Below, piece by piece: positions 31,742-54,169 of a stretch of 64,000 nucleotides of DNA (positions are counted from its first letter, which is position 1; the number at the start of each line of letters is the position of its first letter). A program made the position numbers and the translations under genes. The stretch is from Bdellovibrionales bacterium (GTDB lineage Bacteria; Bdellovibrionota; Bdellovibrionia; Bdellovibrionales; JAGQZY01). The stretch spans positions 608,001-672,000 of the forward strand of contig CAXRHT010000001.1 in NCBI GenBank assembly GCA_964230645.1. Reading direction: 5' to 3'. The notes under the pieces were generated by a model that was not told the DNA's origin, ran no database searches, and saw only the letters and a list, made by a program, of their open reading frames with translations.

Positions 31742-32407
31742 ATGAATAATCTTTTCCAGACATTTAGAAAATCTAACAAAAACGAAGCTGGCTTCTCCTT
31801 AATGGAGCTTATGATCGTTCTGATTATCGTGGGAATGTTTATTACATTCAGTGCAAGAAAGCTGGTCAATAGAAGCACCCAAATGAAAGCGGCCGTTCGC
31901 GATTTTTCAGCGATTACTAAAAAACTACGCAACCGTGCAAGGCTTGATAATAAAACCTATCGGCTGGTTTTTGACCTACCCGTGGACAAATCAAAAGCTC
32001 AAAGCTACTGGGTAGAATCAACGAGCAAACCCGCCCTTCTCCTCTCAAGCGAAGAACGGGAGGAATTAGAAGAAGACCTTGAAACTGTAGAAGATGAAGA
32101 AGGTAACGAGCAGAAACCAGACCCACAAGGTTTTGTCACAGACAATGGAGTCATTAAAAAAGCTCCGGCTACCCTGCCCGATGGACTTTTTTTCCAGTCT
32201 ATCGAAATCGATGGTGACCCTATAGAAAAAGTCGAAACAGGCCGCGTTTATATCTACTTTTTCCCCCAAGGCTATGTTCAGAAAAGTGCGATTCACCTGA
32301 CAAACCGTGATACCCTGAACTGGACTCTTGTTATTTCAGGACTCACAGGACGGGTCGATATTTTTAACAAGGAAAGAGAACTCAAGGAATTCAAGGTGGA
32401 AGACTGA
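31742..32407 (+). CDS. gspH: Minor pseudopilin GspH
   Basis: G|FSLME; IYFFPQG; operon position. Confidence 0.8.
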   Translation: MNNLFQTFRKSNKNEAGFSLMELMIVLIIVGMFITFSARKLVNRSTQMKAAVRDFSAITKKLRNRARLDNKTYRLVFDLPVDKSKAQSYWVESTSKPALLLSSEEREELEEDLETVEDEEGNEQKPDPQGFVTDNGVIKKAPATLPDGLFFQSIEIDGDPIEKVETGRVYIYFFPQGYVQKSAIHLTNRDTLNWTLVISGLTGRVDIFNKERELKEFKVED

Positions 32408-32934
32408 TGAGATTGAAACTGGGTGAAAAAGGATTCTCACTTTTTGAAGTACTGATTGCCATGTCGATCATGTCGTCGGCCGCCATCCTTATGTATATGT
32501 CTTGGCACGGTAACCAGGTTCGAGTGCAAAAAATGGCCATAAACAATAAAGCGGCTCTTCTATTAGACCAAATCATGTCACGCCTTGAAATCGAATACTC
32601 TGAGAGAATCACGCAGCTTCCTGAAAATGATGGTGGAGAATTCGAAGGCAATCCCCGTTACAGCTGGAAAATGGAATCTCGCGATTTTGAAATGCCGGAT
32701 TTAAGGTCGGTCTTGATTTCAGGAGATCAAGGGAATGAAGCCATGCTTCTCGTGGTGGATAAACTCACTGAATATCTGAATCAAAGTGTTAAAGAAATGA
32801 AAGTCACAGTCTTTTACAAGCGCGGTAAACAAACAACCTCCTATACGGCCACCACTTTTCTTGTCGATTACAATCAAAGCATTCCTATTGGAGGAGGCAT
32901 CCCTGGGGGAGCCGGGGGAGGTTTTGGGCAATGA
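32407..32934 (+). CDS. gspI: Minor pseudopilin GspI
   Basis: G|FSLFEVLIA; operon position. Confidence 0.8.
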   Translation: MRLKLGEKGFSLFEVLIAMSIMSSAAILMYMSWHGNQVRVQKMAINNKAALLLDQIMSRLEIEYSERITQLPENDGGEFEGNPRYSWKMESRDFEMPDLRSVLISGDQGNEAMLLVVDKLTEYLNQSVKEMKVTVFYKRGKQTTSYTATTFLVDYNQSIPIGGGIPGGAGGGFGQ

Positions 32935-34016
32935 CCGGACTTCCTCGTTTGCTTTCGGGGGCCTGTCCAAGAGCCCTCAGCAATAAAATTCGCGAAGCTT
33001 TTCAAAGAGGCACGCACTCGGGTGCACTTCGTCTCCCGGATTGCACCACTTCGTGGCGCAACCCGAGATACGCAGCGCTCGCTGCTCGAGCCTCTTTGAA
33101 AAGCTTCGCGAATTTTATTGCTGAGATCTCCTGGCCAGTTTTTCAAGAGAAATACCGTAAGGGCTTTACCCTTATTGAAGTTATGATTTCTATGTTTATT
33201 ATGGCTATGTTGACCATTTTGGTTTCAACTTCCATTCGTACGGCTGTGCAAAACAAGAAGAAAATTGAGGATCGAGTTAAAACCGAGACTATTCTTTATG
33301 ATACTCTTCGAGTCTTGAAGCTTGATATTGAGCGGGCCTTTCATTACCAAGATGTTTTTTGGGAAATTGAGAATTTGGCCATACAACAACTTGAAAATGA
33401 GCAGCAGAATCCCGGAGGACAAGGTCAAGGGCAAGTACAGGGTGGTTTTCAGAGAACGCAGCAGCCGGCTTTTGGAGCCAATCCTAATGTGCAGCAACGC
33501 CAGCCTCCGGTTCAACTCACACAGTTTTTAGGGGAGAAAAACAGTCTGCATTTTACTTCTCTTAATAACTTTCGCACCAAGTACAATGCGCCTGAGAGTG
33601 ATCAAATGGAGGTGGGCTTTTACTTAGAGTCTTGTGAAAGACGAGACGGTAAAGGAAACACGCAATGTTTATGGAGACGGTCTTCTCCGCAAATTGATGA
33701 TGAAGTGGATAAAGGTGGTACAAAAGTTGTTGTGGCCGAGCACGTCCAAAAGTTTCAGCTTCGTTACCGTGATAAAAGAGAAGATGGCGAATGGGTGGAT
33801 CAGTGGCGCTCGGACAACAAGGGACGCTCTGATCATCGCAATAAATTTCCCCACTTTGTGGAAGTCGAAATTGAAATTGAAGATGAGGACGATAAAAGGT
33901 CCAGAAAAGTAAGCCAAACTATGGTGGTCTCTTTAGCTTTCCCCAATAATCAAACTCACATTCAACAGCAGCAGCAACAACAACAACTTCAACAGAACTC
34001 GGGGGCCTTTCAATGA
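32931..34016 (+). CDS. gspJ: Minor pseudopilin GspJ with an abnormally long (78 aa) leader
   Basis: ATGA overlap with gspI; G|FTLIEVM only at codons 78/79; W...W...P C-terminal motif. Confidence 0.82.
   Translation: MTGLPRLLSGACPRALSNKIREAFQRGTHSGALRLPDCTTSWRNPRYAALAARASLKSFANFIAEISWPVFQEKYRKGFTLIEVMISMFIMAMLTILVSTSIRTAVQNKKKIEDRVKTETILYDTLRVLKLDIERAFHYQDVFWEIENLAIQQLENEQQNPGGQGQGQVQGGFQRTQQPAFGANPNVQQRQPPVQLTQFLGEKNSLHFTSLNNFRTKYNAPESDQMEVGFYLESCERRDGKGNTQCLWRRSSPQIDDEVDKGGTKVVVAEHVQKFQLRYRDKREDGEWVDQWRSDNKGRSDHRNKFPHFVEVEIEIEDEDDKRSRKVSQTMVVSLAFPNNQTHIQQQQQQQQLQQNSGAFQ
32976..33125. repeat. 150-bp palindromic (MITE/RPE-like) element inside the 5' end of gspJ
   Basis: Perfect 36-bp inverted arms (32976-33011 and 33090-33125) enclosing three small hairpins. 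Confidence 0.9.
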
Positions 34017-38847: not shown

Positions 38848-38965
38848 AAGGTACCAGGTTCTTTTTTCGGAAGCACAGTGACAATCTGTAGCTACTATCT
38901 ACTTAAAAGAGACCCGATACTTTAAAATTGGCGCTGCGCTTCCGAAAATAGAACCTGGTACCTTT
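38847..38965. repeat. 119-bp inverted-repeat (REP/MITE-like) element
   Basis: 39-bp arms (38847-38885 and 38927-38965) with 35/39 complementarity. Confidence 0.8.
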
Positions 38966-54068: not shown

Positions 54069-54169
54069 CAATGTCCTCCTGCGCAGCAAAGGATTCAATG
54101 TCCTCCTGAGCGTAGCGAAGGATCTTAGGTCTTTCGCTTCGCTCAAGACGACACGGCTCAAGACGACAT
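54069..54169. repeat. Nested REP-like palindromic repeat
   Basis: Two direct copies of CAATGTCCTCCTG(A)GCG..GC.AAGGAT, followed by two inverted copies ending GCTCAAGACGACA. Confidence 0.75.

Follow-up and report, generated by a model that had tools for sequence, protein, structure and literature searches.

REPINs are extragenic, multi-copy hairpins of 100-250 nt with a patchy distribution, and belong to REPIN/RAYT systems, whose transposase TnpAREP is a class 2 Y1 enzyme (PMC3337134, PMC3733652, PMC6006769, PMC3333891). Their spacers were described as all different and yet still paired (PMC3337134), and they insert without target duplication. Cleavage of single-stranded DNA by TnpAREP was reported to take place some way off the site it recognises (PMC3333891). 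The CGTC-type REP is characterized by a CGTC tag, a stem of 8-9 bp, a loop of 4-5 nt and a CCA tail; the same source describes REP dimers nested in longer, partly variable palindromes around a conserved inner module (Halothiobacillus CGTC-1, Anabaena GTAG-15), which are the nearest published precedent found for the element reported here (PMC3733652). TwoAYGGAY (RF01731) was described as having a conserved head above a long basal stem, with variable copy number, occasional inverted doublets and an association with REP-type repeats (bioRxiv 10.64898/2026.09.22.753630). Rickettsia palindromic elements are palindromes of about 150 bp that are often found in frame (PMC10969869). Why REP and REPIN repeats stay conserved, and how diverging arms can keep their pairing, is an open question.

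The window analysed here, a stretch of 64,000 nt from a Bdellovibrionales genome (G000), carries a type II secretion operon. The initial annotation had placed a palindrome within the frame of its gspJ gene, and the perfect 36-bp arms, spanning 150 bp, are confirmed together with an imperfect extension to 32963-33138 (52 nt at 90%). The palindrome folds with a z-score of -11.4 as RNA and -10.3 as DNA, and 0/200 shuffles were equally stable. The gspJ frame is open throughout, with a leader of 78 aa before G|FTLIE as annotated, and its product carries N_methyl and T2SSJ domains. An assembly artefact was rejected: in contigs from runs X1 and X2 both flanks are identical to the assembly as far as the repeat (0 differences), X1 possibly deriving from the same sample as the assembled genome. 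A 173-nt contig from a separate study shows 5 differences over 33003-33175, a span that takes in the tip, the right arm and the cleavage site. Related strains, thin in coverage, did not reveal an empty-site joint. The coordinates of the features are given in Table 1.

The palindrome is one of 28 copies of a Bdellovibrionales hairpin family with a conserved tip and site-specific arms, and the family is best read as one that would spread as folded single-stranded DNA in the manner of REPINs, by an enzyme of the RAYT type (HUH/Y1); the probability of this reading is put at roughly 0.5. The minus strand would fold into a rod recognised by a protein, the unit would be cut and inserted as single-stranded DNA, and template switching or hairpin repair would keep the drifting arms matched. 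The gspJ copy would have landed directly past the gspI stop, a typical position for the family, and its persistence would be owed to a frame that was never closed and to prepilin peptidase, which would take off the added residues.

Table 1. Features of the gspJ locus (positions in the window) and copies of the other tip families (positions with the prefix C1, C2 or C3, genome G000)
Feature	Position	Strand	Remark
gspI-type pseudopilin gene	32407..32934	+	TGA overlaps gspJ ATG (ATGA)
gspJ-type pseudopilin ORF, 361 aa	32931..34016	+	predicted 78-aa leader, 32931-33164
Unpaired G-tract	32956..32962	+	left-end mark of the family; GGG in 23/27 copies
Left arm, copy-specific	32963..33011	+	perfectly paired part 32976-33011
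Conserved tip, rod-like imperfect hairpin	33012..33089	-	better fold on minus strand
Invariant motifs within tip	33030-33034, 33067-33073
Apical triloop	33050..33052	-	minus-strand GAA (G-N-A type)
Right arm, inverted copy of left arm	33090..33138	+	perfect part 33090-33125; in-frame TTG 33096 inside
Basic residues and G|FTLIE prepilin-peptidase site	33153..33179	+	intact despite insertion
Second family	C1:265096, 356954, 838450, 987307; C2:404160, 424927, 596907, 1349173, 1658526, 1820780; C3:772311
Third tip family	C1:766617, 823543; C2:222919, 400370, 494277; C3:381047
Fourth tip family	C1:255788; C2:839425; C2:1208894; C3:675814

The inner 88 nt occur in 28 copies in this genome, and 27 of them lie between genes, the gspJ copy being the sole one within a recognisable gene; the upstream-most start codons of a few neighbouring genes, which are predicted starts, fall inside an arm. 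Tips are 83% alike in pairwise comparison, arms 34% and shuffles 25%. The arms measure about 40-57 bp and are near-perfect, with 62 mismatches in 1340 pairs (copy C3:486934 was excluded from the arm statistics for its internal insertion). The highest arm identity between any two copies is 55%, and the comparison of arms disclosed no recent duplicates in this genome. The G-tract marks the left end, GGG standing at the mirror place in 1/27 copies against a background of 8.9%. Of the three inner hairpins drawn in the initial annotation, the two at the sides (GCAC-TCGG-GTGC and GCAGC..GCTGC) find no support, as covariation is absent over the 28 aligned copies and their pairing was matched by 183/500 shuffles; a rod-like alternative fold of the tip does covary (0/500 shuffles). 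A target duplication was sought and is absent (3.48 vs 3.66 for shuffled pairs). Searched as guides, the arms matched nothing in this genome above chance beyond their own locus.

A covariance model detected the family in 17/150 other Bdellovibrionales genomes and in 8/25 other genomes of the host's taxonomic family; in a sample of the phylum 3/150 genomes were positive, all within Bdellovibrionales. There are about 49 loci in genome G097 and 28 matches in G041, and the closest gspJ relative is without any copy of the repeat. This patchy presence suggests mobility. A pattern scan of GTDB gave 24 matches, 3 of them with arms and all in Bdellovibrionales, and a scan of metagenomes gave at least 120 stretches, at least 6 with arms. 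Viral contigs yielded 0 matches with one pattern and 12 with another, none of them armed; the plasmids and phages searched were unmatched. A search of the accessible literature found no published description of this repeat family. In G097 a stretch of 0.7 Mb (C1:1.16-1.89 Mb) holds one of the roughly 49 copies, and is possibly the terminus region.

Among the neighbouring genes scanned (55 here, 127/160 elsewhere), those with names are housekeeping or other ordinary genes, with the exception of one mutator transposase, and many have no Pfam match. The same gene neighbourhoods are met in different genera (L014/L110, L052/L097, L056/L126 and L090/L093/L134, at groEL, rpsA, rsmD-aminotransferase and dapB), and these may be hotspots or old copies. 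Two elements lie no more than about 100 bp apart in inverted orientation at L379 (G016) and at L394 (G015). At L097, L110, L121 and L354 the left arm starts at the T-run of an apparent intrinsic terminator, which suggests either that arms grow into the adjacent DNA or that targets are rich in T.

The family resembles REPINs in its extragenic, multi-copy and patchy occurrence, in arms that differ in all copies and still form a hairpin, in the lack of target duplication and, for some copies, in ending in transposase-linked repeats as REPIN/RAYT systems do. Unlike in REPINs, the conserved part is the tip and not the two ends, most copies are without a terminal REP, and no cognate transposase lies beside the tip; the copy-rich G041, a draft assembly, has no enzyme match. 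Inverted conserved end REPs are absent here and were found in a minority of the G097 elements and in G024/G025. The repeat of the outer ends also flanks a RAYT-type gene in G097 and, for G024/G025, in G139; this holds neither for the tip nor in this genome. By analogy the family would act like a REPIN; it does not belong among them, because its conserved part is the tip. A classical MITE was rejected, as conserved terminal inverted repeats and a target duplication are lacking. Integron attC sites have RYYYAAC/GTTRRRY boxes at the stem base and stand in tandem arrays; this assignment was likewise rejected, such boxes being absent from the alignments and the copies lying dispersed between housekeeping genes in either orientation. 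A CGTC-type REP was also rejected, since the CGTC takes part in the pairing of a longer rod, the loop has 3 nt and a CCA tail is lacking. With the nested REP dimers the family shares the conserved inner module in a longer, partly variable palindrome, and the CGTC at the foot of the tip stem (PMC3733652). It is unlike them in having for its tip one asymmetric rod of 78 nt instead of a REP dimer, on arms of 40-75 bp that are nearly unrelated between sites. TwoAYGGAY has in common with it the conserved head with its long basal stem, the variable copy number, the occasional inverted doublets and the association with REP-type repeats; unlike TwoAYGGAY, the family has a single apical hairpin, whose loop is of the GNA type.

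Y1 transposase genes of G097 are flanked by two repeat types that recur as the outer ends of tip-bearing elements in the same genome (8 and 6 of 48 by eye; 10 confirmed by BLAST), with matches of up to 27/27; the ends in G024/G025 match the repeat beside the Y1 gene of G139 at 20/20. The Y1 proteins resemble TnpAREP (PDB 4ER8, E 5e-10), score below the NCBIfam cut-off and carry the Y---NP motif described for class 2 (PMC6006769). From these matches between element ends and transposase repeats we infer a RAYT-like mobilising enzyme. No tip adjoins any Y1 locus scanned. This genome has two Y1 loci, and the arms of its elements resemble the repeats of neither. G041 (28 element matches) and G142, both draft assemblies, gave no Y1 gene with Pfam or with a custom profile. 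RVT_1 had no match in this genome or in G041, no tip lies next to the 7/13 RT loci scanned, and a search for a GIY-YIG partner returned UvrC only. Tyrosine recombinases gave three matches. A short tyrosine-recombinase frame (209 aa) at G000 C2:155447-155833 adjoins a REP doublet at its end. In G000 a repeat flanking a RAYT-like gene forms a doublet at 38854-38958 of the window and at G000 C2:1598695-1599476 (L018), with 14 matches in the genome. CGTC-type REPs have well over 150 matches genome-wide in G000, for example at 54100-54152 of the window, and a terminal repeat like that of G097 has 24 matches in G000 with no adjacent transposase.

At gspJ, 29 orthologue loci were compared, of which 24 were readable; in the other five the cleavage motif could not be placed, and they were left out. 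In these 24 the distance from the gspI stop to the cleavage Gly is 4-59 nt, against 227 here; no inverted repeat longer than 11 bp lies in that interval, and neither a palindrome nor a leader of comparable length is present. Both the 28 genomic copies and these palindrome-free sites bear out the view that the repeat was inserted. The leaders of 10 congeners are 4-10 aa long; therefore both arms came with the element as new DNA, and copying from an ancestral target is ruled out. The insert is no shorter than 183 nt (32956-33138), and the congener leaders put its probable length at 204-222 nt. The overlap of gspI stop and gspJ start is conserved in 9/10 congeners and TTG 33096 lies inside the 36-bp stem, so the ATG is likely the real start, ancestral and coupled. 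If it is used, a pseudopilin leader of 78 residues is tolerated.

Prepilin peptidase removes the leader of pseudopilins. The initial annotation had proposed an element like those of Rickettsia, for which coding sequence would be the target and a cleaved leader a safe site, and the gspJ copy, a 150-bp palindrome lying in frame in a leader, does resemble the published elements in size and in being in frame (PMC10969869). The census of copies largely refutes this explanation, which is now extremely improbable: 1/28 copies here lies in a gene, which gives no support to leaders, or to genes in general, as target sites of the family, and elsewhere 1/81 lies under a long predicted opposite-strand frame. 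A conserved encoded peptide is absent, because the arms differ at every copy; the assignment to Rickettsia palindromic elements was rejected on these grounds. Many frames of the element are open (41/162, with at least one in 20/27 copies), and one in-frame survivor therefore needs no targeting. The gspJ copy is likely such a chance survivor whose leader is cleaved off the protein. What had looked like leader targeting would be ordinary chance survival, and the leader a side effect. An influence of the large hairpin on translation or mRNA processing, also suggested in the initial annotation, is putative.

The element is polarised. The minus strand gave the better fold in 106/108 copies as DNA and in 89/108 as RNA; since it is favoured as RNA too, folding energy alone cannot separate DNA from RNA. 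Plus-strand arm mismatches carry C more often than G (51 vs 7 here and 20 vs 4 in other genomes; the bias in G097, 17 vs 12, is not significant). The apical loop of the minus strand was scored in 24/27 copies of this genome and reads GAA in 12, GCA in 8, GTA in 1, GGA in 1 and AAA in 2, so that 22/24 are G-N-A loops; GNA triloops were described as stable in DNA (PMC3201870, PMC13037366). Minus-strand fold, mismatch bias, GNA loops, left G-tract and absent target duplication together favour a polarised single-strand DNA element. Alternatively, the tip could be a structured RNA on a long basal stem which, like TwoAYGGAY, occurs in many copies and regulates in cis or binds protein; the stem would then serve for processing of the RNase III type. 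TwoAYGGAY was likewise reported to occur in many copies, to have a basal stem and to spread in a mobile-like way (bioRxiv 10.64898/2026.09.22.753630), and 21/35 tip pairs of the present family covary. The plus strand has two conserved G-U pairs, and the majority of copies lie shortly past gene ends; both observations keep this explanation in consideration. The 106 copies classed by gene orientation comprise 34 and 18 in tandem pairs, 34 between convergent and 20 between divergent genes; in the tandem pairs the plus strand is preferred as sense (34 vs 18, p=0.036), and the 20/106 between divergent genes speak against RNA, as does the fact that the better-folding strand is more often antisense. 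Either strand of the element can be the sense strand of the neighbouring genes. The tip matched no Rfam family. TwoAYGGAY itself was rejected, since its two AYGGAY-loop hairpins on a common stem and the conserved AYGGAY loop are absent and its model reaches 40.2 bits (cut-off 43) on the arms only. The loops are of the GNA type of DNA, and an RNA is regarded as unlikely.

At loci shared between genomes the tips are nearly invariant, with 87/88 and 91/91 identical in G024/G025 and 77/78 in G006/G010, while fourfold sites at these loci differ at 141/413, 134/308 and 110/210 (34-52%; binomial p <1e-14; two antisense shadow ORFs were left out of the counts). This contrast points to selection on the tip in place, and selfish copying alone is an insufficient explanation of it. 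The two G024/G025 loci retain different tip variants, which makes homogenisation among copies unlikely. At a shared locus the same 12-13 substitutions are present in both arms, and arm drift at shared loci is no faster than that of silent sites; template switching was reported to homogenise arms and to invert spacers (PMC8604942). The tip is inverted at 2/2 loci common to G024/G025, which was not counted as evidence because perfect arms of 56-74 bp can be mis-oriented in short-read assemblies; the fixed polarity of the G-tract here argues against frequent flipping. The family thus separates two questions raised by REPs and REPINs, the conservation of the repeat and the pairing of arms that diverge, and makes selection in place directly measurable, as the tip is constant at fixed loci and both arms drift together. 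Selection on the tip suggests a putative use by the host or by a domesticated enzyme. The near-invariant tips, the variants kept apart in one species pair and the neighbourhoods recurring across genera would also suit domesticated chromosomal sites, where a cruciform extruded by the arms would present the tip to some protein of the host, any mobility being past or incidental. Against this, the element was not found in 17/25 other genomes of the taxonomic family or in 10/12 congeners searched, tips are mostly genome-specific in type even at shared sites, and the partner protein is putative; domesticated sites of this kind are quite unlikely. An undescribed insertion that builds or scrambles a paired arm of about 50 bp at each event, so that each copy starts out with new arms and one carrier can bear different tips, is more doubtful still. 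It would account for a second family of 11 copies in this genome, with an unrelated 66-nt tip on copy-specific arms of about 50 bp, similar in length, and a left G-tract in 8/11 copies vs 1/11. It would also fit the near-saturated arms, no two copies sharing them while G-tract and tip persist, and their highest variation beside the tip. Yet 30% of arm pairs between loci lie above the 95th percentile of shuffles, so that the arms are weakly homologous, shared arms do not outpace silent sites, both gspJ arms are new DNA and not copied from the ancestral target, and no candidate enzyme was found. As the families share arm length and polarity, an undescribed class of DNA elements, with interchangeable selected single-strand tips on self-matching arms of about 50 bp, a shared, polarised insertion machinery other than a cognate RAYT and functional sites kept by the host, is conceivable, though rather unlikely. 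REPIN-like spread of folded single-stranded DNA by a RAYT-type enzyme is preferred to each of these.

Two further tip families in G000 stand on arms of about 35 bp (Table 1, third and fourth). Homology of the flanks to those of the REP-linked families C and D was rejected (p 0.17-0.92), and common flanks across all families of this layout failed when tested. In the third tip family a CGTC-type REP lies about 25 nt to the left in 6/6 copies, at a fixed distance; its hairpin reads AYGGAY on the other strand, and this family may be TwoAYGGAY-like. A hairpin of about 45 nt is inserted inside the tips of two families (G000 C3:486934 (L056), C1:142906, C1:733509 and C3:591788), and appears to be a nested mini-element.
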